Below are positions 39,017 to 62,703 of a stretch of 64,000 nt of DNA, one piece after another. The first letter of the stretch is position 1; each line of letters begins with the position of its first letter. The notes under the pieces were generated by a model that did no database searches, was not told the origin of the DNA, and saw only the letters and a list, made by a program, of their open reading frames with translations. The translations under genes were made by a program, and so were the position numbers. The DNA is taken from assembly GCA_050253415.1 (NCBI GenBank), contig JBFWJC010000001.1, positions 680,679-744,678 of the forward strand, in the 5' to 3' direction. Source of the DNA: Pedobacter sp. (GTDB lineage Bacteria; Desulfobacterota; Desulfuromonadia; Desulfuromonadales; Syntrophotaleaceae).

Positions 39017-39034
39017 AAACGGAAGGGTGATTTC

Positions 39035-39919: not shown

Positions 39920-39932
39920 AAGGAGTGCGGCA

Positions 39933-42166: not shown

Positions 42167-42193
42167 AATACGAATTAAATCCTGCTGCAGGGG

Positions 42194-44128
42194 TTAAAAG
42201 GTTAAGCTGGCGCCTGCATAACCTGCAATGCCGGGCGTACCAAACCCATTGACTTCTTCGTACTCTTCATCAAACAAGTTTTCCACTCTGCCGTGAATTT
42301 TGAGATGTTTGTTGATCTCGTATGAAAGCCCCAGATTGACGACCGTGTAGGCGCCAAGGCTGGTTGTTTTGCTCCAATCATAAAGATCCAGATCGTCACG
42401 TTCGCCAACATAAAAAATATCGAGATTGATATTGCCGGCGTCGAGAAAACGGTAGTTGGCATTTACGTTGTATTTATGGCGTGGACGGCGTAACAACTGT
42501 TTGCCGGTACTACGGTTTTCCGTGTCTGTGTACGTGTAACTTGCAGACAGGGTCAGGTCGTCAACGGGTCGCACTGAAGCGGTGACCTCAATGCCTTTGG
42601 TCTGGGCTTCGTCGACATTTTCATACTCGTACTTGAAACTGTCCAAGCTGAAAAAGGTGTTGATCAGATCCTCGAAATGATTTTCGAAGTAGGTTGCTCC
42701 AAGGGTTATGCGATCATCCCACAGGCTTTGTTCAAGGCCAATGTCCCATCCGCGACTTTTTTCGGGTGTCAGTTCGGGATTACCTAGAACATAAGTCGAA
42801 TTTTCAAATAGCTGAGCCAGTGTCGGGGCCTTGAATGCTGTCCCATAAGTTCCCTTGATGCGGGTCCCGGTAGGACGAAACAGGTAGCTGCTGGTAATTC
42901 TATAAGTCAGCCGCGAACCAAATGTTTGGTGGTCATCCACGCGCACACCCAGGGTAGTGATGAAATCCTGCCAGAGTTTGATCTGATCCTGAATGTAGTA
43001 GCCGTTGGTCTCTGCGCTCTTTTTTTCAAAGGCGTCATTGGTGTTCCAGGAGGGATCTGCATAGACATACACGGATGAACCCTGGGCCTCTTCCTTTTCG
43101 TATTCAACCCCCACGGTCAGGGTGTTGGTGGGGTGGAGATAGAGGTTGTGCTGCCAGTCAATCTTGTAGAGACGGCTGTCGTAGGTGGTCAGACTGCTGT
43201 CAGAGGGATGTGCAGCATCAGTATCATCCCTGTTTTCCCGTTCATAGTCAGTCAATGAAAAGCCCAGCTTCTGTTCCCATAAATCATTCAGCAACATGAG
43301 GCGAGACTGAACGCGCAAATAGAGAGCTTCGGAATCAAAGGTGTTGTTGACGTCATCGCCATAGGGTCCGGCAAAAGTATCCAGATCCGCCTCAGAGTCT
43401 ATATAGCGCAAAATAAAATCGATATCGAAGTTATCCGTTGGCGTAAGTCCGAGTCGGGTGGCAACCGTGGTGCGATCATAACCATCTTTTTCCGAGTTGC
43501 CATATCTTTCGGCTGCCGCCGATATGCCGTCGGATTCAAGGAAGGATGCAACCAGGGAGTAGTTCAGAAGGTCGTTGCCCCCGCTGATGGAGAGTTTTTC
43601 CTGGTGGGTATCGAAACTTCCGCCCTCCGCGAATAAGCTGACACGGGGCTTGCCGCTCCCTTTGCGGGTAATGATGTTGATTACGCCACCCAGGGCGTCG
43701 GAGCCGTAAAGGGTGCTGCCAGGGCCTCTAACGATCTCAATGCGCTCGATATTGTCAGTCGCAAGGGAGGCAAAATCAAGGGACCTTCCAGGATTGGAAG
43801 GGTCATTGATTTCGATTCCGTCAACAAGTACCAATGTATGGGTGGAGTTGGCGCCGCGCAGGAAAATCGAGGTTTGTTGACCCAACCCTCCCTGTCGCAC
43901 AACGTCCAGGCCTGGCACGCTACGCAGTACCTCCGCGACCGAATTGGACTGCTTGTCTTCAATCTCTTGGCGGGTAATGATGGTGACAGAACTGGCGACT
44001 TCACGTAACGGTGTTTCGATCTTGGTTGCCGTGACAACGACCGGTTCGAGGGTGGTCAGGTCGGAAGCGAATGCAGAAAAAGTCTGCATCAATACACCGA
44101 CCAGGGCCAAAGACAGGATTTTAACCAT
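42194..44128 (-). CDS. btuB: TonB-dependent cobalamin receptor (BtuB-like)
   Basis: TonB box VVVTAT, plug IERIEIVRGP.STLYG, C-terminal Phe; cobalamin riboswitch upstream. Confidence 0.85.
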   Translation of the reverse strand: MVKILSLALVGVLMQTFSAFASDLTTLEPVVVTATKIETPLREVASSVTIITRQEIEDKQSNSVAEVLRSVPGLDVVRQGGLGQQTSIFLRGANSTHTLVLVDGIEINDPSNPGRSLDFASLATDNIERIEIVRGPGSTLYGSDALGGVINIITRKGSGKPRVSLFAEGGSFDTHQEKLSISGGNDLLNYSLVASFLESDGISAAAERYGNSEKDGYDRTTVATRLGLTPTDNFDIDFILRYIDSEADLDTFAGPYGDDVNNTFDSEALYLRVQSRLMLLNDLWEQKLGFSLTDYERENRDDTDAAHPSDSSLTTYDSRLYKIDWQHNLYLHPTNTLTVGVEYEKEEAQGSSVYVYADPSWNTNDAFEKKSAETNGYYIQDQIKLWQDFITTLGVRVDDHQTFGSRLTYRITSSYLFRPTGTRIKGTYGTAFKAPTLAQLFENSTYVLGNPELTPEKSRGWDIGLEQSLWDDRITLGATYFENHFEDLINTFFSLDSFKYEYENVDEAQTKGIEVTASVRPVDDLTLSASYTYTDTENRSTGKQLLRRPRHKYNVNANYRFLDAGNINLDIFYVGERDDLDLYDWSKTTSLGAYTVVNLGLSYEINKHLKIHGRVENLFDEEYEEVNGFGTPGIAGYAGASLTF

Positions 44129-44282
44129 AAAGAAAAACTCCTCCTTGTGCCCAGGCAGGAGTGAGCACGAAGAGGAGCATGGTCCTTTGCATGTTCACAT
44201 TTACGATAAATGCGACAGCAACAGTAACGACCGCTTCAGCCCACCTTCCCATAAGCCCGGGGAAGATGATGTGGGATGTCCG

Positions 44283-44445
44283 AAACGGCAGGTATACTGG
44301 CTTGCGAATCATTCTCGGGACCGCCTTCCCAGCATGAGCGCCAGTGGCATGTTGATCCCTCGTCCTCGCTTACAGTGGCGGGTCCGCGGGGGATTTGCAC
44401 CCCTCTTCCCTCTTACGCCCTGAGGCGCCGTCGAACGTATACCGT
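44283..44445 (-). ncRNA. Cobalamin (B12) riboswitch
   Basis: Minus strand AAGAGGGAA-GAGGGGTGCAAATCCCC-CGCGGACCCGCCACTGTAAG...GCCACTG...GGGAAGG...AAGCCAGTATACCTGCC. Confidence 0.93.
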
Positions 44446-44501
44446 AAATGTAACCTTATTGTATAAGATTGTAAAGTAAGTCTAAGGGCTTATAGGAAAA
44501 A

Positions 44502-44854: not shown

Positions 44855-46588
44855 TTAGAAATTCCAGACTTCGTCGATTTCGGCCGGGGTGAAGTCCCAT
44901 ACTGCATTGTGGGGAGGAATCGGCTCGAGTTCGAAGAACTCAGGCAGACGGTCGTCTTCGTTGGTGAAGCCAGCCTTGGTGTTCCACTCTTTTTCCATTT
45001 TCAGGATCTTGGCGCCCATGCCGACGAAGTCGTCAACAGTCATTTCAACGCCGAAGCGGGCTGCGATCATGTCAACCAGAGCGGGCAGTACTTCGGGGAT
45101 ATCCAGAGCCGGGAAGGCTACGAAGATACACATACCGGTGCTGTCGACTGCGGTGGTAGCAATCTGCAGGTTACGGGACAGTTCAACCTGGCCTTCTTTG
45201 GTCAGAGGATCGACGAAGCCGCCAACCTTGAGGATGTTGGTAGCAATGGTGTAGCCGGCAGTGTGGTCGGCACCCTGAGTAGTGGTAGCGTAGGTGATGC
45301 CGATACCCTTGACCGAACGGGGGTCGTAAGCCGGGATACCCTGGTTTTTGACAACCGGTACACGGGTCAGGCCATAAGCTGCGCCGACGGAACCGGTACC
45401 GTTACCAAGGATACGGCCCAGAGGGGTACACTTGCCGATTTCTTCGTTCATGATGCGCAGGCCTTCTTTGCCATCACCCCAGGGGAGTACGCCGGCTTCC
45501 ATGGCGACGGCGAGAAGTACGGCGCCTTCGATGGAGTCGATGCCGATGTTGTCCATGGCGTTGTCGATGCGTGCGCAGTCGTCAAGGCTTTCGATCAGGC
45601 AGTTGATGCCGAGGCCCCAAACGGTTTCATATTCGAAGCCAGAGGTGATGTACTCACCTTTGTCGTCAACATATACCTGGGAGCACTGAATGATACAACC
45701 GGCATGGCAGCCGTGCTTGGTGTGGCCGTTGGGGCGGCCGGCGATGGTGTCATGCATGGTCTCGCCGGACACTTTGTCGTGGTGCTCGCACTGGCCGTAT
45801 TTGAAGTTTTTGGTCGGCAGACCGCCGGCTTCGTTCAGGATGTTGATCAGAACGTTGGTGCCGTAGGTGGGCAGACCTTCGCCGGTAACGGGGTGATCGA
45901 GCATGCCTTTTGCGAATACTTTGGCAGCAGCGCGGAATTTCTCGGTGTCGGCGATTTCAACTTTACCGGCGCCGGTAGCATCAACGGTGATGACCTTGAT
46001 CTTTTTGGAGCCCATAACGGCGCCCAGGCCGCCACGACCATGGGAGCGGATCTTCTGGTCGGGGTCTTTGACCGAAATGTTGGCGGACAGCAGGCGATTT
46101 TCACCGGGGATGCCGATGGTCATAACGCCGATTTTTTTGTCGAACTTTTCGTTCATGGCGTCGATGACGTCGAAGTTCTGCTTGCCGACCAGCTCGGAAG
46201 CGTCTTCGAAGGTTACGCCGTCCATGGTGACATGCAGGCGATACCATTTGTCATCTTTGGGCTGGCCTTCGATGATCATGGCTTTGATGCCCATTTTGGC
46301 GAACTGCTGAGCGGTGGTGCCGCCGGCGTTGGATTCTTTGATGGTGCCGGTCAGGGGGCTTTTAGCACCGGCGGACATACGGCCGGAGTTGGCAGCCGCG
46401 GTACCGGACAGCTGACCGGGGGCGAATACCAGTTTGTTGTTAGGTCCGAGGGGGTGGCACATCGGGGGTACTTCTGCTGCTACGATGGTGGAGGTCAAGG
46501 CACGACCGCCCAAAGTAACAAATTCGGCGGGTACTTTCTCGACCTTGCAGGTCAGATCCGTCATGTTAACGCGGAAAATCTTATCCAT
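44855..46588 (-). CDS. aor: Tungsten-dependent aldehyde:ferredoxin oxidoreductase
   Basis: KSPLTGTIKESNAGG, GRGGLGAVMGSK, GCHAGCIIQC, EYET, YDPR, GADHT, DSTGMC, DDRLPEFF. Confidence 0.94.
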   Translation of the reverse strand: MDKIFRVNMTDLTCKVEKVPAEFVTLGGRALTSTIVAAEVPPMCHPLGPNNKLVFAPGQLSGTAAANSGRMSAGAKSPLTGTIKESNAGGTTAQQFAKMGIKAMIIEGQPKDDKWYRLHVTMDGVTFEDASELVGKQNFDVIDAMNEKFDKKIGVMTIGIPGENRLLSANISVKDPDQKIRSHGRGGLGAVMGSKKIKVITVDATGAGKVEIADTEKFRAAAKVFAKGMLDHPVTGEGLPTYGTNVLINILNEAGGLPTKNFKYGQCEHHDKVSGETMHDTIAGRPNGHTKHGCHAGCIIQCSQVYVDDKGEYITSGFEYETVWGLGINCLIESLDDCARIDNAMDNIGIDSIEGAVLLAVAMEAGVLPWGDGKEGLRIMNEEIGKCTPLGRILGNGTGSVGAAYGLTRVPVVKNQGIPAYDPRSVKGIGITYATTTQGADHTAGYTIATNILKVGGFVDPLTKEGQVELSRNLQIATTAVDSTGMCIFVAFPALDIPEVLPALVDMIAARFGVEMTVDDFVGMGAKILKMEKEWNTKAGFTNEDDRLPEFFELEPIPPHNAVWDFTPAEIDEVWNF

Positions 46589-46635
46589 TTTGTACTTCCT
46601 CCCAATCTTTTACATCTGGAATGGTTCCGGGTAAA

Positions 46636-46730: not shown

Positions 46731-46974
46731 TGGTAGTTTCGCATAAATCGCTGATGAAGATGTCAATGAACTTTTCCAAGTAGACACGTTATAACATAAA
46801 ATAGAACGAAAGTTCAATATCGGATGGTGTATACATTTTGCGGCGGCGGGTATTTTTTGCAAAAAAACTGTAAGACCTTGAAAACACACTGGAAAAAAAA
46901 TTAAAATTGATAGCAAACAGTGTGGTTTTTCGATCTGTTTTGCGTTGAATGGCGCGTTTTTTTCACAGCTGACG

Positions 46975-50014: not shown

Positions 50015-50040
50015 GGGCACAATCCGGCAGCAGAGGCGGT

Positions 50041-51843
50041 TCAGTGTTTTTCGGGAACGTCCTGCAGCGTTTCTGAGCAGGCCCGCACTTCGGCAATAAG
50101 CTTCCCGGCTTTCTCGGGTAAATCGGCCGGTATGACTGCCTGGTCGCCACGCGCCAGAGCATGATCGATGATGGACAGCACGTCGGCGGCGGATGGGCGG
50201 CATGCGCGGGGCAGTGCATCTTCGATGCGGTGGAAGAAGGCCGTGTGGCTCCCCCCGCGCATGTCCTCGTCAAGCCCTGCAAATTCGGCCAGGTAGTTTT
50301 TCAAGGCTACACCCAAAACGGCCAGTTCTTTTAATCCCAGGTGTTGCTCTGTGGCCAGAACCACTGCGCTTACTGCCTGATATAGGCGGTTCAGGGCGTG
50401 GTTTTCGGGCTGCACGGCCATTTTCTGGCGGCTACGCCGGAGGATGGCTGCCGATGCGCAGACCAGGCCGATGAGAACCAACCCGGCTAACATCAGCATG
50501 GCATGGTGGCGTTTGGCCCCTGTCGCAGCCGCGTCATCCATGCCCGGCAGGGGGGCTGGTTCGGCGACCTGCAGGTCAAATCCCTGCTGGCTTTCCGGGA
50601 TCATCGCGGCGATGCGTACGGGTACTTCGGTAGTCTTGATCAGCTGCACCTTGGTCCTGGGTGCGCCGCTATCTGTGTAATAAACCGGAATGCCCGGGAG
50701 ATTGTATTCGCCGGTGGCATAGATTTTTATCTGTCCGGTAATGCGAATGGGGCTGCGGTTCAGGTCGACGGCGCTTAACGGGACGTCATAGCTGATGTCG
50801 TACAAATTGTGGAAAATGCCACCCGGTTTGAGATTCAGGTTGGCAATGGTGCTCGATTCAATTTTCACCTTGTCGGTAAAGCGAATTTCAAAGGTAAAGG
50901 GGATGGGGGTGCCGGGCATGGCACCATTCATCGCCAGGGAAAACTGTACGCCGACAGGCGGTATCAGAGGCATCAAGACCGGCCAGGCCTGCGCTACGCT
51001 GATGTCCTCGGCCAGCAGGTTGGCAGTCTGCCAGACGCTTTGCCGGCAAGGATCGATGGTGATACTTTGACGGTTGGAGGGCGTTATTTCATCGGTTTCC
51101 ACGGCCTCGATGGCTTGCAGCAGAGCCTGCCGTTGTTGGGGGGAGGCGGCGGTCTTCCAACGGATCGCAATACGTTCCAGGGGAGCATACAGCTGATCAG
51201 CGATTCTCCAGGCAGGGTGTGCGTACTTGACCTGTGGATCCTGCTGTAAACGCGTCATAAGGGTTTGGAAAACTTCCTTCGGCATATCTCTGCGCAGCCG
51301 GTAGGCGGCCATAGCGGGGCCCAACTCCGGGTCGTGAAGGAAGTGACTGAAGTATTCGCCGTACTGTTGGTTGAACGACTCGAAGGATGGCGGTTGGGCA
51401 TTGCTATCCCCCATCTGGAGATTGTCGGATATCTCTGCCGAGTAGCTGTCGGTTGTGTCCTCCGGCAGAGTATCGATTTGCCTCGTTGCATCCATCAATC
51501 GCACCACCAACCAGTCAAGGGCCGGTTGGGGGACGACCCTCTGCCCGTTTTGGTCGTAGAACCATACATCCTCCTGGTAGCTGGACCACAGGCGGTCAAA
51601 GCAGGCGATACGTTCCGCATCAAGGGAGTCTGACGCGGTTTCCGGCTGAGCCTCGGAATCCGTGACTTGTTCGGCGGATACTTCCGCAGTTGTCCCACTT
51701 TGATCAGGCAAGTTTTCTGCTGCCATGGCCGGGACAGCAAACACCAGGAAGAAAACCAGAACCTGGACCAACAGGCTTACCTGCGCAAGGCAGGCAGGGT
51801 GCTTTGTAACTGTACGGGAAGCATTGCGAGGATGTTGTTTCAT
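50041..51843 (-). CDS. Exported membrane-anchored protein (MxaA/BatD-like C-terminal half)
   Basis: Signal peptide ending PAMA, beta-sandwich segment (GEYNLPGIPVYY), TM at ~aa 480-505, short cytoplasmic tail. Confidence 0.6.
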   Translation of the reverse strand: MKQHPRNASRTVTKHPACLAQVSLLVQVLVFFLVFAVPAMAAENLPDQSGTTAEVSAEQVTDSEAQPETASDSLDAERIACFDRLWSSYQEDVWFYDQNGQRVVPQPALDWLVVRLMDATRQIDTLPEDTTDSYSAEISDNLQMGDSNAQPPSFESFNQQYGEYFSHFLHDPELGPAMAAYRLRRDMPKEVFQTLMTRLQQDPQVKYAHPAWRIADQLYAPLERIAIRWKTAASPQQRQALLQAIEAVETDEITPSNRQSITIDPCRQSVWQTANLLAEDISVAQAWPVLMPLIPPVGVQFSLAMNGAMPGTPIPFTFEIRFTDKVKIESSTIANLNLKPGGIFHNLYDISYDVPLSAVDLNRSPIRITGQIKIYATGEYNLPGIPVYYTDSGAPRTKVQLIKTTEVPVRIAAMIPESQQGFDLQVAEPAPLPGMDDAAATGAKRHHAMLMLAGLVLIGLVCASAAILRRSRQKMAVQPENHALNRLYQAVSAVVLATEQHLGLKELAVLGVALKNYLAEFAGLDEDMRGGSHTAFFHRIEDALPRACRPSAADVLSIIDHALARGDQAVIPADLPEKAGKLIAEVRACSETLQDVPEKH

Positions 51844-51873: not shown

Positions 51874-52737
51874 TCAGATTCTGGTCGCCAGGCGCCGGGC
51901 AAAAAGGGTGTTGACGCGGGCCTGGATATCCGTAGCACCGACTGGAAGCACCGCGGAGTCGATGCCGACCCCGGCCAGTGCGCGCACGGTGCGTTCCCTG
52001 TCCCGACGCAGCAGGGCGTTGAACTCCTGAAGGCGGGAAAGATCCAGGTCCATTTGCTGGCCCGATTCCATATCCTGAAGCGTCAACAGGCCGCTGTCGA
52101 TGCCGGTCAGCCGGTATTCCGAGTCTTCAAGCACATGCAGGGCCACCATCTCATGGGCGGGAAAACGGCTGTCCGCCGCATCCATCAGACCTTTGAGATA
52201 GCCAAGGTCGGTGTGAAAATCGGAAATGATAACCCCGAGGCAGGAGGCCAGTCGTTTCATGACGAATTCCAGCGCCGGTGCCAGTCGGGTCTGCCGGTTT
52301 TTGGCTGCCGGGGCCTGCTGCAAGGCGTTGACGATGCGGTGAAACTGCCGTGGCGCGGCACTCGGAGGAATCCAGGTCAGGACCTTGTCGGCGAACAGCA
52401 GCAATCCGCAGGGATTGTTGGCGCGCAGGGCGGCGTGGGCCAGGGAAACGGCCAGGTCCTTAGCCATACCGAATTTGTTGCCGAAGTGCATGGAGCGGCT
52501 CACATCGCATATCAGTAGCAGGTTGTAGGCGCTGTCCTTGAGAAACTCACGCACGTGCAGTTCGCCGCTGCGTGCGCAGGCTTTCCAGTCGATACGGCTC
52601 CAGCTGTCGCCGGGCAGGTATTTACGCAACCCCCAGAACTCGTATCCGGTGCCCCGGTCAAGCCCGGCCCAGTCGCCCGCCATGTCGTTACGTGGGGGGT
52701 GTTTGAGCAGGATATCGAAACGATAGGGAGGTTTCAT
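51874..52737 (-). CDS. DUF58 family protein (MxaS-like)
   Basis: G.EF..LR.Y.PGD....IDWKA.AR, DVSRSM.FG, ISDF. Confidence 0.92.
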   Translation of the reverse strand: MKPPYRFDILLKHPPRNDMAGDWAGLDRGTGYEFWGLRKYLPGDSWSRIDWKACARSGELHVREFLKDSAYNLLLICDVSRSMHFGNKFGMAKDLAVSLAHAALRANNPCGLLLFADKVLTWIPPSAAPRQFHRIVNALQQAPAAKNRQTRLAPALEFVMKRLASCLGVIISDFHTDLGYLKGLMDAADSRFPAHEMVALHVLEDSEYRLTGIDSGLLTLQDMESGQQMDLDLSRLQEFNALLRRDRERTVRALAGVGIDSAVLPVGATDIQARVNTLFARRLATRI

Positions 52738-52764: not shown

Positions 52765-53784
52765 TTAAGCATAAGGGTCCACCGAACGTACGATATCCCG
52801 CAACAGGTCGGCGGCATGAATGCCCTCGAGAATCGCCGAGTCGCTGAGGATCAGGCGATGTCCGAGAACCTGGGCGGCACAGGCGTCGACATCTTCAAAG
52901 GCCACATAGTCCCGCCCGCGCAAAAAGGCAAATCCTTTGCAATAGGCGATAATATGCTCGCCGGCACGCGGCGAGACTCCCACCGAGACGTAATCGCGTA
53001 CCGCCGGAGGCGCTACGTTTGACTGGGGGCGGGTGCGCAGGCAGATTTCGAGAATATAAGCCACTACGGCCTCTGAAACGGTGACGTGATGAGCAACATG
53101 CTGCTGCATGGCGACGACTTCGTCCGGTTGCAGCAGGCACGGTACCGCTTTTTGCAACTCTTCGAAGTTGGTGCTCTTTTTCCTGAGCAGTTGTTCCTCA
53201 AACTCCCTGGGAGGGTAGGTCAGGGTCACCTTGGCGATAAACCGGTCGAGTTGCGCCTCCGACAGGGGGTAGGTGCCGAGCTGTTCCACCGGATTCATGG
53301 TGGCCAGCACCATGAACAATTCAGGCAGTTGGTATTGGTCGCGGTCGATGCTGACCCGCTTTTCCTGCATCGCCTCAAGCAGCGCCGATTGCACCTTGGG
53401 CGCCGCGCGGTTGATCTCATCAGCCAGCAGAATGTTGCAGAACACCGGCCCCTGATGAAAGGTGAAGGCGCCGGTAGCCTGGTTGAAAACGGTGGTGCCG
53501 GTGATGTCGCTGGGCAGCTTGTCCGGCGTGAATTGAATGCGCTTGAATTCGCCACCGATGGTGCGGGCGAAGGTGCCCACCGTGAGGCTTTTTGCCAGCC
53601 CCGGCACCCCCTCCAGCAGAATGTGACCCCGGGACAGAAGAGTGCAGATAATGGCTTCGATCATCGCTTCCTGGCCGATGATGATTTTGCCGATTTCCTC
53701 TTCGACCTGCTGAATCTTGGTGCGGAACGTTTCCGCCGAAAAGGTTGCTGCAGTCGGGGAGGTATTGTTGGCGGTAGGATTCAT
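52765..53784 (-). CDS. moxR: MoxR-proper AAA+ ATPase (MxaR-like)
   Basis: HILLEGVPGLAKS, RIQFTPD.LPSD, LLADEINRA, ATMNP.EQ.GTY.L.EAQLDRF. Confidence 0.93.
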   Translation of the reverse strand: MNPTANNTSPTAATFSAETFRTKIQQVEEEIGKIIIGQEAMIEAIICTLLSRGHILLEGVPGLAKSLTVGTFARTIGGEFKRIQFTPDKLPSDITGTTVFNQATGAFTFHQGPVFCNILLADEINRAAPKVQSALLEAMQEKRVSIDRDQYQLPELFMVLATMNPVEQLGTYPLSEAQLDRFIAKVTLTYPPREFEEQLLRKKSTNFEELQKAVPCLLQPDEVVAMQQHVAHHVTVSEAVVAYILEICLRTRPQSNVAPPAVRDYVSVGVSPRAGEHIIAYCKGFAFLRGRDYVAFEDVDACAAQVLGHRLILSDSAILEGIHAADLLRDIVRSVDPYA

Positions 53785-53842
53785 GACAGTGCTGCCTCCA
53801 GCTATAACGGTCGTCGACCGGCTGTTGGTCGGTCGAAAAGAT

Positions 53843-54898
53843 TTAGAAAAATACAAATTTGCGGCGGTCACGGATGATCAGGTAGAGAAAAAACGGCCCG
53901 CCGAGCAGTGCGGTCAATACTCCGATACGCAGCCCGCCGCTGCCCCAGACACGCACCACGCAGTCCGAATAGATTACCAGAGCTCCCCCCAGCACACCGG
54001 CGGCAGGGATAAGCACCCGGTTGTCCGAGCCGACAAAGCTGCGCATGATGTGCGGCGCGACCAGGCCTACGAAGCCGATGGCGCCGGATACTGCAATGGC
54101 GCCGCCGGTCAGCAACGCGGAGATAAACAGCAGCATGTTGCGGGATAGGGTTACATTGACGCCGAGGTTGGCGGCGATTTCCTCGCTGAGCATCATGATG
54201 TTGAGATCGCGGGCGTAAAGCATCGACCACAAGGTCCCGATCAGAGTGATGATAAGCACGATATGCACATGCTGCCAACTGCGGTTGGTCAGATCCCCCA
54301 TCAACCAGCCCACGATCTGGCGTGCCATCTCGAACTGGTCCGTCGACAGCACGATGACCAGCGATGTCAGGGCGCCGAAAATAGCATTGAAGGCGATGCC
54401 GGCCAGCAGCAACGTATAGCGCGAGGTCAGTCCGCCGCTGGTGGCGATGCCCAGCACGATCAGCATCGACAAAAAGGCGAACAGGATGGCAAACGACGGT
54501 ACCGCGTAGATGCTGGTGGCGGCCAGACCGGCGTAGATGGCCGTTACCGCACCCAGCGCCGCGCCGGAACTGGTACCGATGACCCCCGGACTGGCCATGG
54601 GGTTTTTGAAGATGCCCTGCATGATGGTCCCCGCGGCGCCCAGCGCGAATCCGACCAACGCACCGGTCAGGGTGCGTGGAACCCGTCCCAGCCAGACGAT
54701 GGCTTCCAAAGCTGGATCCGTCACCATATCGAGACGCAGAACCTTGGCCGCCAGGATGCGGCCGATATCCTGCAGGCTGACCTCCCAGGGGCCGATGCGG
54801 ACCGACAGAAACATGCCGACAAGTAGCAGTGCCAATGCGGCCGAGCATGCCATCAGGCTGGTGATAAAAAAATGCCGGCGATCAGAACGACGATTCAT
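53843..54898 (-). CDS. BtuC/FecCD-type ABC permease (probably corrinoid)
   Basis: RVPR, QGIFKNPMASP..IG.SSGA, W.MG, G.IGFVGL..PH. Confidence 0.9.
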   Translation of the reverse strand: MNRRSDRRHFFITSLMACSAALALLLVGMFLSVRIGPWEVSLQDIGRILAAKVLRLDMVTDPALEAIVWLGRVPRTLTGALVGFALGAAGTIMQGIFKNPMASPGVIGTSSGAALGAVTAIYAGLAATSIYAVPSFAILFAFLSMLIVLGIATSGGLTSRYTLLLAGIAFNAIFGALTSLVIVLSTDQFEMARQIVGWLMGDLTNRSWQHVHIVLIITLIGTLWSMLYARDLNIMMLSEEIAANLGVNVTLSRNMLLFISALLTGGAIAVSGAIGFVGLVAPHIMRSFVGSDNRVLIPAAGVLGGALVIYSDCVVRVWGSGGLRIGVLTALLGGPFFLYLIIRDRRKFVFF

Positions 54899-55955
54899 AA
54901 ATTAATCCCGCCAGGTAGTTGATGCTGGCGACCAAATATTGTGAAGAACTAAGTAAGTAAACCGTTGGCATCTTGCGGATGTTCTTCTGCCGTACCGCGC
55001 GTGCCGTGGCCAGGATCTTCTGGCTGTAAAGTTGCAGGTCAAAGGTGCTTTCTTCCGGCACGATAATCACATCCGGATTCCATTGCAGCAGGGTTTCGTA
55101 GTCAATCTGCTTGAAGTTGTGAATCCCCTTAACTGCGGCGATGTTGGTCACTCCCAAAGCCTGGCACATGCTGTTAAATGTGGTGCCCGAACCAGCCACG
55201 TAGGCCATATTATCGTAATACAGCACGGTCGGCGGTTTGCTCACGGGCCCTCTTCGCTGCCGCACCACTGCTTGGATATCGCGCAGCTTTTCGGTCATGA
55301 CGGAAACCAGGCGCTGCGCCGAGGCTTCTTCGCCGGTCAGGCGTCCGGCCAGCACAATCTGATCCTTGATGGCATCAAGATCGTCGAAAAACCCGAACTG
55401 CGCCAAAGGCACATGCGCGGTGCGCAGCTGGTGCAGAAAGTTTTCGTTGGAAAAGAACGACGCCAACACCAGATCCGGACGGTAGCCGATGACGATTTCC
55501 GCATCGTCGGTGCCGTAGGTCGGCAGGTCGGCCGGCAGCAGCGGTGCCAAAAACGAGAACTGTCGATCCTTGCAGCTTTTGTGCACAGCGACCAGGCGCT
55601 CATGCGGTACAATGGCCCACAAAATTTCCGTCAGACCTGTTGCGTGGGGAATAATGCGCTGCGGCTGCCGCGCAAGGGTAATCGATCGTTCCTCATCATG
55701 TTTCTGGTCTGAAACGAAATCATAGCGTACAAAGCGATAGGATACGGTGCGGGGATAGCTCTCCGCCGTAACAGGTGTCGGTTGCCGGGTGTCGCTCAGT
55801 GATCCCATCAGCGCATCCATCTCCAGAGGAAACTTGCGGGCACCGCGGGCGTTTTCCGCCGCGGTACAAGCGCCTCCCAGCAGCATCGTCAGCAACGCAG
55901 CTCCCAAAATCCCTGTCAAGGCATGCTTAACGATAGAACAACAGCGAAACGCCAT
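54882..55955 (-). CDS. BtuF/FecB-type periplasmic substrate-binding protein
   Basis: PQRII, TEILWA, E......PDLV, E.LLQWNPDVII, AVRQK; start uncertain. Confidence 0.85.
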   Translation of the reverse strand: MAFRCCSIVKHALTGILGAALLTMLLGGACTAAENARGARKFPLEMDALMGSLSDTRQPTPVTAESYPRTVSYRFVRYDFVSDQKHDEERSITLARQPQRIIPHATGLTEILWAIVPHERLVAVHKSCKDRQFSFLAPLLPADLPTYGTDDAEIVIGYRPDLVLASFFSNENFLHQLRTAHVPLAQFGFFDDLDAIKDQIVLAGRLTGEEASAQRLVSVMTEKLRDIQAVVRQRRGPVSKPPTVLYYDNMAYVAGSGTTFNSMCQALGVTNIAAVKGIHNFKQIDYETLLQWNPDVIIVPEESTFDLQLYSQKILATARAVRQKNIRKMPTVYLLSSSQYLVASINYLAGLIYESSF

Positions 55956-56703
55956 GTTCGGTTGCGATTTCCTCCACGCCGACATGGAAAACCTCCTTGA
56001 TGCGTTGTTCGGCAAATCCTTGTTCGGCCTTGCCGTGGTAATAGACGCTGCCCTGTTGCAGCAGGGTTACGGTGTCGCAGTAACGTCGCGCCAGGTCGAG
56101 ATCGTGGATACTGATGAGAATGGTTTTACCCGCATCGCGCAGGCTGGTCAGCAATTCCATGATTTCGAGCTTGTGCAGAATATCCAGGGCGCTGGTCGGC
56201 TCGTCGAGCAGAATGATCGGTGCTTCGGTGGCCAGCGCGCGCGCTAGACTGACCAACTGCGCCTCGCCGCCCGACAGTTCGTTGATAAGCCGGTTGCGGA
56301 AGATGTCGGTGCCGGTGACCACCAGGGCCTGGTCGATGATATCCATATCTTTCTGGCGCAGCCACTGCAGCCGTTTCAGGTGCGGATGGCGGCCCATGGC
56401 GACAAAGTCGGATACCATAATGGAAAAATCGAGGCGCGTGTCCTGCTGTACCAGGGTCACCATCTGGCTGAGAGATTTGCGGGGGATGCGGCGATAATCC
56501 CGCCCCTCGATCAAAACCCGGCCGTTTTGCGGTTCCCAGATGCGGCAGATGTTGCGCAGCAGCGTGCTCTTGCCGGAACCGTTGGGCCCGATCAGTCCAT
56601 GGATGCCCCCGGCGGCAAAGTGGCAGCTGATGTCTTTAAGAATAGCATGGCCACCGATGGAAAAATCGAGCTTGTCAATCTGCAGGATCGGTTGATCGGT
56701 CAT
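55927..56703 (-). CDS. BtuD/FecE-type ABC ATP-binding protein
   Basis: GPNGSGKST, V.MGR.PH, LSGGE, LLDEPTSALD, HDL.LA. Confidence 0.92.
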   Translation of the reverse strand: MTDQPILQIDKLDFSIGGHAILKDISCHFAAGGIHGLIGPNGSGKSTLLRNICRIWEPQNGRVLIEGRDYRRIPRKSLSQMVTLVQQDTRLDFSIMVSDFVAMGRHPHLKRLQWLRQKDMDIIDQALVVTGTDIFRNRLINELSGGEAQLVSLARALATEAPIILLDEPTSALDILHKLEIMELLTSLRDAGKTILISIHDLDLARRYCDTVTLLQQGSVYYHGKAEQGFAEQRIKEVFHVGVEEIATEHGVSLLFYR

Positions 56704-57521
56704 TCTTCCTCGTGTTCCCGGCTTTTAAGAGTCAGTTTCCAGGCCAGCGGCAAGCTGAATTTGGATACGGCGGTCAGCAGCGTGCCGCACAGCACGATGC
56801 TCCACATGATGCCGTGCCCCAGCCGGTCCTGAAACAGGCCGGTGGTTAAAGTCGTTCCCCATAACAGCGTCAACCCGGCGAATAACTGAATATTCTGGCT
56901 CATGGCATGAATGCCCCAGAAATTTTCGGAAATCCGGCTCAATCGGCCATTGCGCAATTTAATTTCAATGAGTTTAAACCAGATGCGTCCTTCCGCCACC
57001 TGGGCCGAGCCGTCGCAGATGTGATGCAACAGGTACAGGGCAATGAGGACATAACGTCCCGCAGCCATATCGCCGAACAGCCCGGTGAACAAGGGCGGGT
57101 AACACAGCAACAGCAATATCGCTCCCAGCGCCTGCCCACCACCCACCAGGGCCATGGCTCGCACCAGGCCTCGTACCTGGGTGTTGATATCCGGAAAGCT
57201 TTCCAGATAATCGACAAACGAAGAAACCTTGACGTTGCTGATAAACGTGATCCCCGGATAAAAGTATTTTGTCAGCACGCCAAGAATCGCCGCCACCCTG
57301 AATTCGGTCTGGGCCATGGAGAACATGGTGTAGAGCACCGCCCCTTCAAGAATGCTCTTGCCCAAAGTGTACAACAGGTTGCCGATCTCGCCATAGCGAT
57401 AATAAGGACTTAGCCCCATGGCCTGGAACCAGAGGGAAGTTTTATGCGCGACATCGCGCCACAGGGAGCGGGGTGCTGGGCGTGGATTGGCGATGGCAGT
57501 TTTCACGGCGGTCTCAGGCAT
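56700..57521 (-). CDS. Uncharacterised multi-pass inner membrane protein
   Basis: About 6 hydrophobic segments; ATGA overlap with the ABC ATPase gene. Confidence 0.7.
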   Translation of the reverse strand: MPETAVKTAIANPRPAPRSLWRDVAHKTSLWFQAMGLSPYYRYGEIGNLLYTLGKSILEGAVLYTMFSMAQTEFRVAAILGVLTKYFYPGITFISNVKVSSFVDYLESFPDINTQVRGLVRAMALVGGGQALGAILLLLCYPPLFTGLFGDMAAGRYVLIALYLLHHICDGSAQVAEGRIWFKLIEIKLRNGRLSRISENFWGIHAMSQNIQLFAGLTLLWGTTLTTGLFQDRLGHGIMWSIVLCGTLLTAVSKFSLPLAWKLTLKSREHEEE

Positions 57522-57691
57522 AGGCGTATCCCGGTTGCGTTAGAAAGCCGGGCCGCTTGAAGGCGGCCCGACCTGGAATTTTGCAGAGTCCAGCGCTTCG
57601 ACCGAATGCGGGGGGTCGAAAAGCTAATGGTGAGGTGGGGGGAAGAGATGGCCCGGGGCGAACCCCGGGCCGATTACAAAGGGTAGAGAGC

Positions 57692-59959
57692 TTACATTTC
57701 CTTCAGCAGTTTAACCGTCTGGCGGGCTGCTTCAGCAGGAACCAGACCGGTATCGGAAATACCGGACAAAACCTTGGAAGAGTCGTGGTCGACAGTACCT
57801 GCTTTAGCCCAGGTGCTGGGAGCGACTTTGACCAGATAAGCGGAGAAGGCATGATGGCCGCTACCCGGGCGTTCGCCGATGAGATGAACAATGGCCTTAG
57901 GAGTGGTGCCAGCTTTGGTAAACAAAACTTCACCAGCTTTGTAGCCAGCGCGAACGCGGCCGCCGGTCACGACGATGTTTTTATCGGACAGGGTCAATCC
58001 GGCTTTTTTGCACTGTTTTTTCAGTTCGTTCAGGTAAGGCATCAGGTGCCCATCATCCATGATCGCCTTGGCGTTCAGACCGTCGGAGATGACAACCTGT
58101 ACGTCAGGGGCTTTGTTGCCCCAAGAGGCAGACAGTTTGCCCAGGGTGGCAACAGCCGCGTCGGACAACTCTTCACCGGTGCCCGGTGCGGAGATGTAGT
58201 TTTCGCGATCGTGAGCCTGAGATTTAATGCTCACGGCATTGGGGATGGAACCGATGAATTCAGGAGTGAACTCGGCCCACAGGCTGATTTTGGCGTCGTC
58301 ATACAGGTCGTGGATACGCTTGTTGGTGACAGGTTCCAGATCCCATACGTTTTCGCCATAGCCTACGGCCAGGTCGACACCGCGGCTGCGTACGTTTTTA
58401 ATGGATTGCTGGCCTTCAGCATAGATTTCCTTGAAGGAGCGGGTGTCACCTTTGGCCTGACGGAATTTGTAGTAAACCCAGGCAGGATCGCCAAAGTGCT
58501 TGGTCGGTTTGCCGTTGGCGTCGATGACTTCGATTTTTTTGTAGAAGTCCCACATGGCGTCGTTGACTTTAAAGCCGAATTTTTCGCGCAGGCGCACGTG
58601 GTCCTGGAAACCGGTGGTCAGGTAGCTGAGCATCGGGTCGTTACGGGTCGGCAGAGCCATCAGGTAGGCCGGGTTGGCCGGGGCGATCTGATCCTGGCAC
58701 CAGGCCAGGTCGTCGAGGGTTACAGGCATATGCAGGGTCGAGCAGATGTCGAGACCCAGCACCAGGCCGTGCAGTTTACCCATGACGATGTCTTCCAGAC
58801 AGGCGCGTACCAGCTGTTCGCGGGTTTTGAAGACCTCGGGACCGATGAAGCCGGCCACGTCGTTGACGTGCAGCCATACCTGATCCTCGGTGACGCCCTT
58901 GGCTTTGGCGATTTCCTGTTTCAGGGCGCGAGAGAACCCGTATTTACGGGACTCGTGGACGACCATGTCGAAGCCGTGGCCGTGACCGTTGGTGTAGTCG
59001 GCACCCTGGCCGGTTTCGAAATAGAGGCCGTAGGGACCCTTACGCATTTTTGCGTAGTCGATCATTTTCTGGATGGTCAGGTCGAAGGTCTTGTTGGCGC
59101 TTTCGGTACCGGCGAGGCTCTGGAACCAGATAGCGGTGGAGCCGGGCTTGGCTTCTTCCGCGGCAGCCTGACCGTCGATGTGGGACAAAACACACCAGGG
59201 GATGGTTTTTTCCAGGCCGAAAGCATCGACGATTTCTTTAAGACCTTCTTCGACGCGCAGGGTTGCTTCGAGTTGGCTGTCGACCGGGTTGGTACCGATG
59301 ACGATGTCACCGACGCCATAGGCGAAGCCATTAAGCGTCTGCATCTGAATGTCTTCTTTGTTGTCGGTCGGCGAGTTGGGCTGAATGCGGGCGCCGATGT
59401 AACCCTTAGCGCCGATTTTGGTGCCGGGCAGGGTGTTGAAAATCTTCTGGCCAATGCGGGTCAGTTCGGCGTTGGACATCAGTTTGACCACGGAACCGAT
59501 CACATCGCTGTGCAGACCGCCCATAATGGCTTTGATGTCTGCTTCGGGCTTGGTGAGCAGAAAGTTTTTCAGCTCGCCCATGGTCATGTTTTTGATTTTG
59601 TTGTATTTAGCCTTGTCGGTGGTTTGGCGGATCAGGGTGTCCTGGCCATCCACGAACAGCGAATGATCGTTGAGGTCCTTGATCTTGGTGTTGGCCAGCA
59701 ATTTGCGGGCGTTTTCGCGGTCCGCTTCGGTGTCTGCCGCTACCCCGAGGGCCTCGTCGCCTTCTTTAAAGGCATTGGCGGCGCCGATTACCTGCTGATA
59801 GGTGGTTTGGTCAAACTTCCCTTTGGTGCGATTGATGTACTGCATGACGTCTTCACCGGGCTTGACGCTGCCGATGGTGACGGCTCCGGCCATGCTGGCC
59901 AGAAAGGTCATTACCAGTGCGCCGGTAATGCCTGCCACGAATTTCCCCTTTTGTAACAT
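57692..59959 (-). CDS. eutBC: Ethanolamine ammonia-lyase, fused large+small subunit (EutB-EutC), with N-terminal Sec-type signal peptide
   Basis: EutB motifs RIQPN, IGTNP, FQSLAG, YFETGQG, GFIGPE, LED..MGKL, MLSY.TT; EutC motifs DVQVVISDGL, RV, LIGERPG; GGAGG RBS; N-terminus MLQKGKFVAGITGALVMTFLASMAGA. Confidence 0.92.
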   Translation of the reverse strand: MLQKGKFVAGITGALVMTFLASMAGAVTIGSVKPGEDVMQYINRTKGKFDQTTYQQVIGAANAFKEGDEALGVAADTEADRENARKLLANTKIKDLNDHSLFVDGQDTLIRQTTDKAKYNKIKNMTMGELKNFLLTKPEADIKAIMGGLHSDVIGSVVKLMSNAELTRIGQKIFNTLPGTKIGAKGYIGARIQPNSPTDNKEDIQMQTLNGFAYGVGDIVIGTNPVDSQLEATLRVEEGLKEIVDAFGLEKTIPWCVLSHIDGQAAAEEAKPGSTAIWFQSLAGTESANKTFDLTIQKMIDYAKMRKGPYGLYFETGQGADYTNGHGHGFDMVVHESRKYGFSRALKQEIAKAKGVTEDQVWLHVNDVAGFIGPEVFKTREQLVRACLEDIVMGKLHGLVLGLDICSTLHMPVTLDDLAWCQDQIAPANPAYLMALPTRNDPMLSYLTTGFQDHVRLREKFGFKVNDAMWDFYKKIEVIDANGKPTKHFGDPAWVYYKFRQAKGDTRSFKEIYAEGQQSIKNVRSRGVDLAVGYGENVWDLEPVTNKRIHDLYDDAKISLWAEFTPEFIGSIPNAVSIKSQAHDRENYISAPGTGEELSDAAVATLGKLSASWGNKAPDVQVVISDGLNAKAIMDDGHLMPYLNELKKQCKKAGLTLSDKNIVVTGGRVRAGYKAGEVLFTKAGTTPKAIVHLIGERPGSGHHAFSAYLVKVAPSTWAKAGTVDHDSSKVLSGISDTGLVPAEAARQTVKLLKEM

Positions 59960-60082
59960 TCTGTTACCTCCGTCTCGTTTGATGGGGGTGCTATCCGGTC
60001 TGCGACAAACGTCGCAGGCGGAGCATGATGAGGTTAAAGTGTGGGAGATGTCTTTGATGATCAGCAACACCTCCCACAGCGC

Positions 60083-61201
60083 TTACTTACGCAGCTGCTT
60101 TGCTGCTTCCCACATTTCGTTGAAGGCCTGCTCGGTCTCGTCGCTGAGAACTCGCCACAGGGCTACGGTTTTGAAGTAGGCTTCGTCGCCTACGTGGAAC
60201 ATAGCTTTTTCCTCGGCATTGAGGATGTCGCCGGTGTCGGCCATGACAGGTGAAACACCCTGAGATTTGACAACGTCAGCCTGGCGTGCGGGATCGAGGG
60301 AGAAGTTGATCCATTCTTCGGCCAGGGTTTTGGTCATGTCCTTGGCGCCGGCGCCCACATACCAAGCGTCGATCCAGGCTGTACCGCCTTCGGCAGGGGT
60401 TGCCAGGCGCCAGTTGCCGCCTTTAAGGTTGGCGGCCTGGGCGGCGAAACCCCAGGTGGTGGCCAGTGCCAGTTCGGGGAATTCATCCGGATTGGCGGCG
60501 CCGTCCCACAGGCTCTTGGCATTTTTGGCCAGATCGTTGAGTTTTTCCTGAACCTTGGCGCGGTCGAGCTTGTTGATGTCGAAGATATCTTCATAGCCGT
60601 AACCGAGCGCCAGAGCCGAGATCCAGACATTAACCTTGGGGAAGTTATTGTTGATGGTGTACTGACCGGCATACTGGGGTTCCCACAGTACGTTCCAGCT
60701 GGTCGGGGCTTGGGCTACCTTGTCGCGGTTATATGCCAGACCGTAGGGGCCGCAGTTGTAAGGCACTCCGTAGCGCACGCCGTTATAGAAAGGCGTCTGG
60801 TCGTTGCGGAATACTTCCATCATTTTGGCCAGGTTGGGGATGTTGTTCACATCCACGGGCTGCACGTATTGCTGGCCTTCCTGGTAGGAGAAGAAACGCG
60901 GGATCTTGGGCAGTTCGATCGGCGGAGAGATCAAATCCGCGGTGTTGTCTTTGACGGCCTGGAAGAATTCGTCCTGGTCGGTCGGGTTGAAAATCTCGAC
61001 ATTGACATCGACGTTGTATTTGTCTTTGACCAGTTTCTGGAAATCCTCTACGTAGGGTTTGGCATAGCCGCCCCAGCAGGTAATGCGCAATGTTTCTTTT
61101 TGGGTCTCTGCCTTTTTGGTGCAGGCGGGGGTCAACAACAGGGCGCCTGCGGCCACTACGGCTGCGGTTGCGGAAACGGCTCCCCACAAAGTTTTCTTCA
61201 T
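60083..61201 (-). CDS. PotD/PotF-like (polyamine/amine) solute-binding lipoprotein
   Basis: Lipobox LTPAC, W.GY, YGVPY..G..GLAYN, PTSW..LW, P.EG...WID, A..WINF; GGAGG RBS. Confidence 0.85.
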   Translation of the reverse strand: MKKTLWGAVSATAAVVAAGALLLTPACTKKAETQKETLRITCWGGYAKPYVEDFQKLVKDKYNVDVNVEIFNPTDQDEFFQAVKDNTADLISPPIELPKIPRFFSYQEGQQYVQPVDVNNIPNLAKMMEVFRNDQTPFYNGVRYGVPYNCGPYGLAYNRDKVAQAPTSWNVLWEPQYAGQYTINNNFPKVNVWISALALGYGYEDIFDINKLDRAKVQEKLNDLAKNAKSLWDGAANPDEFPELALATTWGFAAQAANLKGGNWRLATPAEGGTAWIDAWYVGAGAKDMTKTLAEEWINFSLDPARQADVVKSQGVSPVMADTGDILNAEEKAMFHVGDEAYFKTVALWRVLSDETEQAFNEMWEAAKQLRK

Positions 61202-61371: not shown

Positions 61372-62109
61372 TTAGAAAGTAAAGGTCAGGTTAAGGGCCG
61401 CGGCCGATTCGGTGTCGATGAGCTCCTTGGCAGCGCTGCTGATCGGCGACGAGAAGATGACGATCGGGCTGAGGGTCAGCTGGTCGGTCAGGGCGTAATC
61501 AAGGCTGGCGCTCAGTTCGTAGTTATGCCATCCGGAGTAGTCGGCTACGGTGCCATCGGCATGCTGGTTGTAAGAAACCAGGGCGCCGAGATTCAAAGTA
61601 GTGTTGGGGACCCACTGGGTAAGGTCGAAGCTGTGGCTGACGTCAAAGCTGAAGAACAGGCCGTCTTCTTCGGCGCGGTCCCAGTCGTAAGAGATTTTCA
61701 GGTTCGGCGAAAGAAGGGTGTTGAGGGTGACGGTCGCGAACAGTTCGTTGGTGTCTTCCCCTTCGATCATGTACCAGATATCTCCGATCGATACGGAAAT
61801 AAGATCATTCACATCAAAGGCATAGGTCAGGATGACGTCGGTTTCGTTGAGCTCGCCAGCTTTCCAGTTGTCGCCACTGGTCAGCTGCCAGTTGTGCCAG
61901 GTGCTGAGGGTGAAACCGCCGCCGAGGGTCAGGTCCATGCCTGCCTGGATGGTCGGGCGGGAGTCACTCAGGTTAAATCCACGCCACATGTACTTGTCCC
62001 AGATGCCGGCGTAGGCATCGCCTTCAACTTCAATGGACGCCTGGGCCTGGCCGATAAAGCCGGCAGTCATCATAAAGACGGCGAGTAACAACACACTCCA
62101 CTTTTTCAT
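61372..62109 (-). CDS. Outer-membrane beta-barrel protein (TorF/TIGR02001-like putative porin)
   Basis: Signal peptide ending AQA, KYMWRG..L...P.IQ, E.D....Y, amphipathic strands, C-terminal LNLTFTF. Confidence 0.8.
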   Translation of the reverse strand: MKKWSVLLLAVFMMTAGFIGQAQASIEVEGDAYAGIWDKYMWRGFNLSDSRPTIQAGMDLTLGGGFTLSTWHNWQLTSGDNWKAGELNETDVILTYAFDVNDLISVSIGDIWYMIEGEDTNELFATVTLNTLLSPNLKISYDWDRAEEDGLFFSFDVSHSFDLTQWVPNTTLNLGALVSYNQHADGTVADYSGWHNYELSASLDYALTDQLTLSPIVIFSSPISSAAKELIDTESAAALNLTFTF

Positions 62110-62703
62110 AGGTTTTTACCTCCATATGGGGATGAAAAAGGGACGGGAGTTCTATCGGGCCACCCGAGGAATTCCTGTCCCACGAAAGCATATGCAAGGG
62201 CCCGGAACCCAAAGGCGCACCGGAAGCCGTTTGTCTTGAATGAAGGAGCGGTCGAGGCCGCAGACAGAGCTGTGCGGCGGCACGGGATGGTGTCGGTAGG
62301 TGGTGGATTGTGAAGCAATAAAGAATCAGGAATCGTGCGAAGCGTGTGTCGTTGGACCGGGGCAGGGCAGAACAACCATGGCAAAAGACGGCGCCAGCCT
62401 GTGTTATCGGCTGTCACCTTGACGTCTTTCCACATGTTCGCCACCAACCTGGTCATAATATACCGTGTCTGAGTAGGAGTGGCCGGCTTCCCACCGGATG
62501 TTCTTTTGCAACTCGAAGCGTTCACAGCAGAACAGGTTTTTAAGGGGTGCCGGTAAACGAAGTTCATCACCGTACTGAGGATAAAATACCTTATCAGGGG
62601 TATGCAGGAGTATCCCCCAACGGAGGGGAATTTAACTCACCAATTGGGGGGATTAAGGCAGGTTAGGGCAGTGAGAAGGGGGCATTCAAGAGGGTTACGG
62701 GGG

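Follow-up and report, generated by a model that had tools for sequence, protein, structure and literature searches.

Can an enzyme that depends on adenosylcobalamin (AdoCbl) radical chemistry be built for work outside the cytoplasmic membrane? The question is raised by eutBC, a gene for a fused ethanolamine ammonia-lyase (EAL) of Pedobacter sp. (Syntrophotaleaceae, Desulfuromonadales in the GTDB lineage; assembly GCA_050253415.1, contig JBFWJC010000001.1), whose predicted product begins like a secreted protein. We analyzed this gene within a stretch of 64,000 nucleotides (hereinafter the window, to which all coordinates refer unless another locus is named), where it occupies positions 57692..59959 of the minus strand. 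To our knowledge, all characterized AdoCbl-dependent eliminases reside in the cytoplasm or in protein microcompartments, where reactivases powered by ATP restore the cofactor and shells prevent the toxic aldehyde from escaping. The best explanation of the comparative evidence presented here, which we consider probable, is that eutBC encodes an intact, single-chain, AdoCbl-dependent EAL that carries a cleavable Sec signal peptide and would function in the periplasm, and that the genes following it most likely supply or renew its cofactor.

An intact ethanolamine ammonia-lyase in a single reading frame

The frame that opens with the ATG at 59959 and ends with the stop at 57692 encodes a precursor of 755 aa that begins MLQKGKFVAGITGALVMTFLASMAGA|VTIG, and a Shine-Dalgarno sequence (GGAGGT, 59966..59971, minus strand, read directly from the sequence) lies 6 nt 5′ of the start codon. 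The frame holds both EAL subunits, as the first-pass annotation of the window had stated: Pfam EutB (PF06751) covers residues 53-487 (E 3.4e-146, 487.9 bits against a cut-off of 25) and EutC (PF05985) residues 553-755 (E 2.3e-33, 115.9 bits against a cut-off of 25.8). Among the NCBIfam models, the EutB subfamily model NF011649 is matched at 645.9 bits, above its cut-off of 554, and the EutC part scores 92.2 bits against the equivalog NF003971, under the cut-off of 230. On the plus strand, 57692-59959 reads as an open shadow frame that matches no family, and this reading was rejected. Both copies of eutBC in this genome (the second is introduced below) are overlapped by antisense open frames longer than the gene itself (window 57557-59956, plus strand, 799 aa; L002 691-2982, plus strand, 763 aa); the one in the window has no family match, and both probably do no more than shadow a GC-rich gene.

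The same annotation had held, from inspection by eye, that the catalytic pocket is retained, and the alignments bear this out. In the HMMER alignment with E. coli EutB (3abo_A), from the printed form of which the residue numbers were counted, R191 and Q193 correspond to R160 and Q162, N224 to N193, E315 to E287, D404 to D362, M434 to M392 and Y446 to Y404, the E. coli residues being those that, from the structural papers on EAL, we take to form the substrate pocket. In a 24-sequence alignment of the family (A1), R191, Q193, N224, E315, D404 and Y446 do not vary, whereas conservation of M434 is at least 90%. The AlphaFold2 (AF2) model of the chain (pLDDT 81.9, pTM 0.78), which the annotation had proposed to overlay on the E. 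coli enzyme, matches both chains of the latter in Foldseek (3abo_A, TMt 0.87, E 8e-27; 3abo_B, TMt 0.71, E 1.6e-8), with both the TIM-barrel large domain and the Rossmann-like small domain recovered. The genome encodes just two EutB homologues, the window copy and a second copy of 753 aa that is 71% identical to it; both possess a leader, and the pocket residues are identical in the two corresponding rows of A1.

A Sec-type leader with a constant predicted cleavage site

Residues 1-26 (59882..59959, minus strand) form a predicted signal peptide with the n-region MLQKGK, the h-region FVAGITGALVMTFLASM and the c-region AGA, and cleavage is predicted between A26 and V27 from the translation and the N-termini of homologues. 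Two positively charged residues, K4 and K6, precede a hydrophobic segment (F7-M23) that is followed by A24-G25-A26; the leader contains no RR, so that it does not match the Tat motif S/T-R-R-x-F-L-K. For comparison, we took the 120 best relatives listed by a word-index search, all of them fused proteins of 680-774 aa, of which two are N-terminally cut gene calls and 118 have usable N-termini. Position -1 is Ala in all 118, which without exception have one of A, V, G, C or S at -3; Val occupies +1 in 109, the charge of the n-region is net positive in 113, leaders have a median length of 26 aa, and RR occurs twice, out of context. The sequence of the leader drifts among these close homologues while its plan is constant, and within columns 1-40 of A1 M1 and A26 alone are invariant. 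The persistence of Ala at -1 and of a small residue at -3 amid a drifting leader is the pattern expected from selection for cleavage by signal peptidase. The anatomy of the leader, together with this pattern in the homologues, supports the earlier assignment to the Sec/signal-peptidase-I pathway without twin arginine. Moreover, the genome encodes TatC twice, so that lack of a Tat system does not account for the use of Sec.

The first-pass annotation had named a true start beyond the hydrophobic segment as fatal to its claim. The downstream candidate, Met39, would yield a canonical EutB N-terminus, but was rejected: this position is not conserved, with Phe or Leu in most relatives, and a strong Shine-Dalgarno sequence precedes Met1. 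In two studies, contigs of four metatranscriptome runs match large parts of eutBC and of the adjacent binding-protein gene at a likeness of at least 90% and include pieces that span the eutBC start codon with one difference, the region 56700-57470 in the following membrane-protein gene being uncovered; as RNA libraries may hold DNA as well as relatives, these contigs show neither transcription nor its absence.

Sec, Tat and leader-less forms in the wider family

A scan with one genome per species retrieved at least 517 loci with relatives, of which the best 80 were kept, and the frame upstream of each match was read. The leaders were sorted by rule (regular expression) and then by eye, which changed nine assignments: L005, L010, L017, L024 and L025 to Sec, of which those of L025 (MRRAIG…) and L024 remain debatable; L042, L062 and L075 to Tat; and L061 to cut. 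So sorted, 28 of the 80 loci have a Sec-type leader (Desulfuromonadales, Desulfobacterales and allies) and 45 a Tat-like one, 33 of the latter with the strict S/T-R-R-x-F-L motif and 12 with RK or RQ in the same context; three loci are leader-less and four are cut by a contig end. All 12 RK/RQ loci belong to Bacteroidota or Balneolota, several of them with a lipobox Cys, and the Tat-like set spans Bacteroidota, Planctomycetota, Myxococcota, Alphaproteobacteria and some Thermodesulfobacteriota. The hydrophobicity of the h-region (12-residue Kyte-Doolittle mean) has a median of 2.64 in Sec leaders versus 1.68 in Tat leaders, as expected for two pathways.

In a FastTree phylogeny of 86 rows, a split with 100% local support divides the exported forms from four fused representatives that have no signal. 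The two eutBC copies of the genome fall into a 14-row all-Sec clade (96%), which shares a group of 52 rows (99%) with a 37-row Tat clade (99%). The Sec label requires at least three changes on this tree, the deep branches of which are weakly resolved and the outgroup branches long, so that we assign no direction to the switches between Sec and Tat. Because most of the 80 related loci carry Sec or Tat-like leaders, export is predicted to be a trait of the family as a whole, the route of which appears to have changed more than once.

The first-pass annotation had further suggested that, owing to the fusion, a single signal suffices to export both subunits. This stands as a plausible advantage of the fused architecture but not as a demonstrated cause: signal-less fused EutBC proteins exist (P0139, P0147, P0187 and P0188; L056, L080 and L082; L089 and L090), and fusion is therefore not tied to export.

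Several further variants were encountered in this family. The Myxococcota have fused EutBC paralogues with a Tat leader (L054, L045, L060) and without any leader (L080, L082), and two of these, L054 and L080, come from one Archangium assembly, which suggests cytoplasmic and exported versions side by side. Three fused proteins, P0124 (1110 aa), P0129 and P0134, are extended at the N-terminus by a long segment, which in one case resembles a C2 domain by eye and may be eukaryotic. In L058 (10001-11923), a complete-chromosome metagenome-assembled genome, the match to EutBC ends at query residue 646, which may reflect a frameshift or a truncated gene.

Gene neighborhoods differ between the leader types

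When the proteins of the window were compared with the 80 loci using tblastn, a shared gene order emerged: EutBC, a conserved membrane protein of 273 aa (TM273), an ABC ATPase, a binding protein, a permease, a MoxR-type ATPase, a DUF58 protein, a 600-aa protein, a VWA protein and a 266-aa protein. This order is present, whole or to the contig end, in L005, L006, L008, L009, L011, L014, L016, L017, L021, L037 and L063. Where the downstream flank is 3 kb or longer, TM273 follows eutBC in 12 of 19 Sec loci versus none of 33 Tat loci, and TM273 was not found in any of the five Tat genomes searched. In a sample of 251 genomes from the class, TM273 is present in 19, all of which also hold fused EutBC at an identity of at least 61%, and the two genes lie side by side in the pairs compared by coordinates; 12 more N-termini checked from these genomes are all of the Sec type. 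Two further genomes of the sample encode an exported-type EutBC without TM273 (one Tat-type, one Sec-like), and the remaining 230 hold neither. No neighboring family is shared among 10 Tat-type loci, and none was found for three module-less Sec-type loci. Thus, the Sec-type genes are usually followed by genes for a predicted half-MFS (major facilitator superfamily) protein, a BtuCDF-like ABC system and MoxR, DUF58 and VWA proteins, whereas the Tat-type genes stand alone.

In the window, these genes all lie on the minus strand. TM273 (56700..57521), identified by its AF2 model, structure matches, dimer model and synteny, overlaps by 4 nt the gene for an ABC ATPase of the FecE/BtuD class (55927..56703; Pfam match; the best NCBIfam model, ‘corrinoid ABC transporter ATPase’, is matched at 230.7 bits, under its cut-off). 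Next come a class-III periplasmic binding protein of the BtuF/heme/siderophore type (54882..56015; Pfam Peripla_BP_2, with iron-complex and hemin binding proteins as PDB matches), the true start of which probably lies downstream of the first start of its open reading frame (ORF), and a FecCD/BtuC-type permease (53843..54898; Pfam FecCD; best NCBIfam match BtuC at 262 bits, under the cut-off). The genes that follow encode a MoxR-type AAA+ ATPase (52765..53871; Pfam AAA_3, PF07726, and AAA_lid_2), a DUF58 protein of the type found in MxaS/BatA operons (51874..52737; Pfam DUF58, PF01882, and VWA_2), a 600-aa protein with N- and C-terminal hydrophobic segments and no Pfam family that is conserved in synteny (50041..51843; hydrophobicity scan), two membrane proteins with a VWA domain (48902-50203 and 46975-47997; Pfam VWA_2, PF13519, a BatA-like NCBIfam match, hydrophobicity scan and synteny) and, between the latter two, a 266-aa single-anchor protein (48007-48807; hydrophobicity scan and synteny). 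With PF07726, PF01882 and PF13519 in consecutive genes, this set reproduces the MoxR-DUF58-VWA arrangement of the mxaRS…/bat type.

For TM273, there was no Pfam family even at E<=10, no NCBIfam match and no usable match in the ESM Atlas. Sixteen homologues (alignment A2) share motifs that include YRYGE-GN, LHHxxDGSAQxxEGRxWFK and NFWxxxAxSQN; the row of L021 was left out of A2, and an apparent 520-aa fusion of TM273 to the ATPase in that locus was rejected, as a stop separates the two genes. The AF2 model (pLDDT 85.4) was compared with known structures using VIA, and the top 50 matches are all halves of MFS proteins (Z 10.8-17.8; the best is 9jbs_A, with Z 17.8, a root-mean-square deviation of 3.0 and 206 aligned residues); given that helical bundles score high by default, this likeness is a fold-level lead. 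A two-copy model scored 0.69, a value reached by 20 of 30 proteins solved as same-chain pairs and by one of 23 solved as single chains, and the best of three controls scored 0.00; at least 7% of contacts are common to the dimer runs, and the pLDDT of the partner does not fall below 83. The modeling thus supports a predicted homodimer of TM273.

The eutBC cassettes and the surrounding cluster

The window copy and the second copy of eutBC are each part of a four-gene cassette in the order porin, PotD-like binding protein, EutBC and 273/275-aa membrane protein, with identities between the two cassettes of 86% for the porin, 75% for the PotD-like protein, 71% for EutBC and 65% for the membrane protein. 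In the window, the first gene (61372..62109, minus strand) encodes a putative outer-membrane porin of the TorF/Gcw_chp family with its own signal peptide (Pfam PF09694; TIGR02001 at 42.7 bits, under the cut-off of 47.15), and the second (60083..61201, minus strand) a PotD/YdcS-like solute-binding protein (Pfam SBP_bac_6, weak NCBIfam matches and polyamine-binding proteins in PDB), which is probably a lipoprotein (…LLLTPAC…, lipobox by eye). Genes for cobalamin synthesis, including the CobA/BtuR adenosyltransferase, lie between the two cassettes, and a cobalamin riboswitch (L004 5083-5266, minus strand) stands before the synthesis (cbi) genes. Just upstream of the second porin cassette there is a gene for a B12-binding radical-SAM protein with DUF4080 (L004 11133-12890, minus strand), and two proteins with no family are encoded further upstream of it.

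Beyond the VWA genes, and again on the minus strand, the cluster of the window includes an aldehyde:ferredoxin oxidoreductase (44855..46588; Pfam AFOR_N and AFOR_C), which has no room for a leader because the family match begins at residue 3, with a Moco/W riboswitch directly 5′ of it (46622-46740; Rfam RF01055, 61.1 bits). Next to it, a cobalamin riboswitch (44268-44447; Rfam RF00174, 102.8 bits), a TonB-dependent receptor (42194-44128; Pfam Plug and TonB_dep_Rec) and TonB (41204-42166; Pfam TonB_C) make up a segment, 41204..44447, that is predicted to serve the uptake of corrinoids across the outer membrane. The Rfam scan found no cobalamin riboswitch between eutBC and the ABC and MoxR genes. 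Full-length EutA was not found in the genome; the sole match, a partial one of 45 positions at 29 bits, we read as a cross-match, since the same model also matches control genomes believed to be without eut genes. The cluster genes scanned include no shell-protein family.

A predicted periplasmic cofactor cycle

These observations can be combined into a tentative scheme. Ethanolamine would enter through the TorF-like porin, and the PotD-like lipoprotein may capture it. Because Sec moves unfolded chains, EutBC would be exported unfolded, cleaved after A26, and would fold and bind AdoCbl in the periplasm, where it would convert ethanolamine to ammonia and acetaldehyde. The acetaldehyde would diffuse inward and is likely consumed by the aldehyde:ferredoxin oxidoreductase of the same cluster, which would oxidize it. 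With respect to the cofactor, the predicted half-MFS dimer of TM273 could export AdoCbl after its synthesis and adenosylation in the cytoplasm, the BtuCDF-like system could retrieve spent corrinoid for re-adenosylation, and the MoxR/DUF58/VWA set could act as an insertion or exchange chaperone in place of the missing EutA reactivase. The Tat-type relatives would carry the cofactor across together with the enzyme and hence need no such helpers. We infer, in agreement with the first-pass annotation, that AdoCbl is inserted after export, and this idea gains comparative support because the Tat relatives share no neighbors (10 loci) and the Sec genes are accompanied by a transporter- and chaperone-like module. 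A more sweeping proposal, possible in our view though doubtful, is that the exported EALs constitute a widespread, overlooked class of extracytoplasmic AdoCbl radical enzymes that switched between Tat and Sec at least twice, and that the Sec lineages possess a dedicated periplasmic cofactor cycle (half-MFS AdoCbl exporter, BtuCDF-like re-import and MoxR/VWA chaperone) replacing EutA and the microcompartment. If this were true, the cycle would be the first known system in which an enzyme receives a B12 coenzyme outside the cytoplasm.

Alternative explanations

Several points weigh against a periplasmic enzyme served by the downstream genes. An AdoCbl radical enzyme working in the periplasm without ATP-driven reactivation is chemically awkward. 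The ABC system scores under the curated BtuCD cut-offs, and its binding protein is nearest to binders of iron complexes and hemin. Seven of the 19 Sec loci with enough flank have no TM273 nearby; of five such genomes, two hold TM273 elsewhere, beside the ATPase and the binding protein and once with another EutBC copy, and in the other three, two of which are assemblies of 2.1-2.4 Mb, TM273 was not found with this query. It is likewise missing from the Sec-like genome of the class sample mentioned above (G183). Furthermore, each state is carried by few independent lineages, which leaves the Sec-module association without a meaningful p-value, and the tree needs only the few label changes given above (at least three), so that shared descent could explain much of the pattern. 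Finally, the window protein has a long h-region (about 17-20 residues) that could serve as an uncleaved signal-anchor that tethers the enzyme to the outer face of the inner membrane instead of releasing it into the periplasm. Consistent with an anchor, F7-A26 approaches transmembrane length (19-residue Kyte-Doolittle mean 1.77), the AF2 model has a helix at residues 3-22, and the positive residues are on its N-side. Nevertheless, we regard this as unlikely: the cleavage-site residues that persist in 118 of 118 homologues while the rest of the leader drifts point to selection for cleavage, and many homologues have shorter h-regions.

Other alternatives concern the compartment and the reaction. 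That the enzyme is cytoplasmic, either started at Met39 or with an N-terminus that serves as a membrane tether or encapsulation peptide, and that the binding protein and TM273 import ethanolamine, would accord with the canonical EutB N-terminus obtained from Met39, with the transporter fold predicted for TM273 and with the genome paper on Pelobacter carbinolicus, which takes the neighbors as an uptake system (PMC3543383). We deem it most improbable in view of the unconserved Met39, the strong ribosome-binding signal before Met1, the Tat-like leaders at the same place in 45 of the 80 related loci and the lack of shell-protein families among the cluster genes scanned. An exported protein without lyase activity, which would bind, store or sense corrinoids in the periplasm in connection with the surrounding B12 uptake genes, would fit the location of eutBC in a cluster of cobalamin synthesis and uptake genes, as well as the failure to find a reactivase and a periplasm without ATP. 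Yet the substrate-pocket residues are kept across the family (M434 in at least 90%, the others invariant), the genome has no other EutB, and P. carbinolicus grows on ethanolamine with the same gene pair only (PMC3543383), all of which makes such a role very unlikely. A different substrate, such as 2-aminopropanol or N-methylated ethanolamines, for one or both paralogues is compatible with a periplasmic lyase and, although the presence in one genome of two cassettes with enzymes 71% identical speaks for it and distinct substrates were suggested in the 2012 paper (PMC3543383), we think it rather unlikely. Against it, the two copies have the same pocket residues, and choline cleavage is now reportedly ascribed to a glycyl-radical enzyme.

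Relation to known systems

The canonical EAL (EutB and EutC of E. coli, Salmonella and Listeria; PDB 3abo, 2qez) has the same two domains, the same fold and the same pocket residues, and presumably the same AdoCbl radical chemistry. Unlike the window enzyme, a single chain with a 26-residue Sec leader and about 32% identity to EutB, it consists of two subunits, is located in the cytoplasm or in microcompartments and is accompanied by EutA, which was not found here, just as no shell genes occur among the cluster genes scanned. The fused EutBC proteins with Tat leaders (among loci L026-L084) have the same architecture, 54-63% identity and an export leader at the same position; they differ in the twin-arginine motif, in a less hydrophobic core and in standing alone, with no shared neighbors (10 loci). 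Methanol dehydrogenase, which depends on pyrroloquinoline quinone, is periplasmic and is exported without its cofactor, and the MoxR, DUF58 and VWA genes of mxaRSACKL presumably aid the insertion of cofactor or metal. The parallel with the window is one of gene content alone; the enzyme, the cofactor and the organisms differ. Corrinoid reductive dehalogenases are B12 enzymes located outside the cytoplasmic membrane, exported through Tat with the corrinoid aboard and without AdoCbl radical chemistry. EutBC may be another B12 enzyme beyond that membrane, one that, unlike the dehalogenases, would be exported without its cofactor.

The closest described counterparts are eutBC-1 and eutBC-2 of Pelobacter (Syntrophotalea) carbinolicus, Pcar_0491 and Pcar_0467 (Aklujkar et al., 2012; PMC3543383). 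That paper describes a 43-gene cluster with an ‘unusual fusion’, duplicated neighbors that were interpreted as an uptake system and no eutA, and reports growth of P. carbinolicus strains on ethanolamine with only the fused eutBC genes and without eutA. The P. carbinolicus relative in our set (P0024) is 71% identical to the window EutBC, and its cluster has in common with the window the duplicated cassette, the cobalamin genes between the copies, and ABC, VWA, ATPase and receptor genes downstream. The paper mentions ‘signal peptide’ three times, in no case for EutBC, and in the supplementary table the gene carries no label other than ethanolamine ammonia-lyase. Neither the enzyme family nor the fusion is new; in the literature outside subscription journals, including passages of a 2018 review (PMC5821096), we found no report of an exported EAL and no paper on its export signal, the conservation of that signal, the Tat/Sec split or the link to the downstream module.

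A periplasmic location would change the presumed site of ethanolamine degradation in sediment anaerobes, flavobacteria, planctomycetes and myxobacteria, and it would have to be explained how so large and labile a coenzyme reaches the far side of the cell membrane and is regenerated there. The occurrence of the same enzyme with Tat or Sec leaders amounts to a natural experiment that makes post-export insertion of the cofactor directly testable. Furthermore, candidate functions are gained for the MoxR/VWA module and for TM273, a membrane-protein family without described relatives.

Other genes of the region

The cluster is adjoined, on the opposite strand, by Mla lipid-transport genes encoding MlaE, an ABC ATPase, MlaA and MlaC (36831-40571, plus strand). 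At the other end, the interval from the cobalamin genes to the porin holds two ORFs with no family, at 62106-62570 (minus strand) and 62602-63489 (plus strand); the former, of 154 aa, has a 47% match in L005 only.

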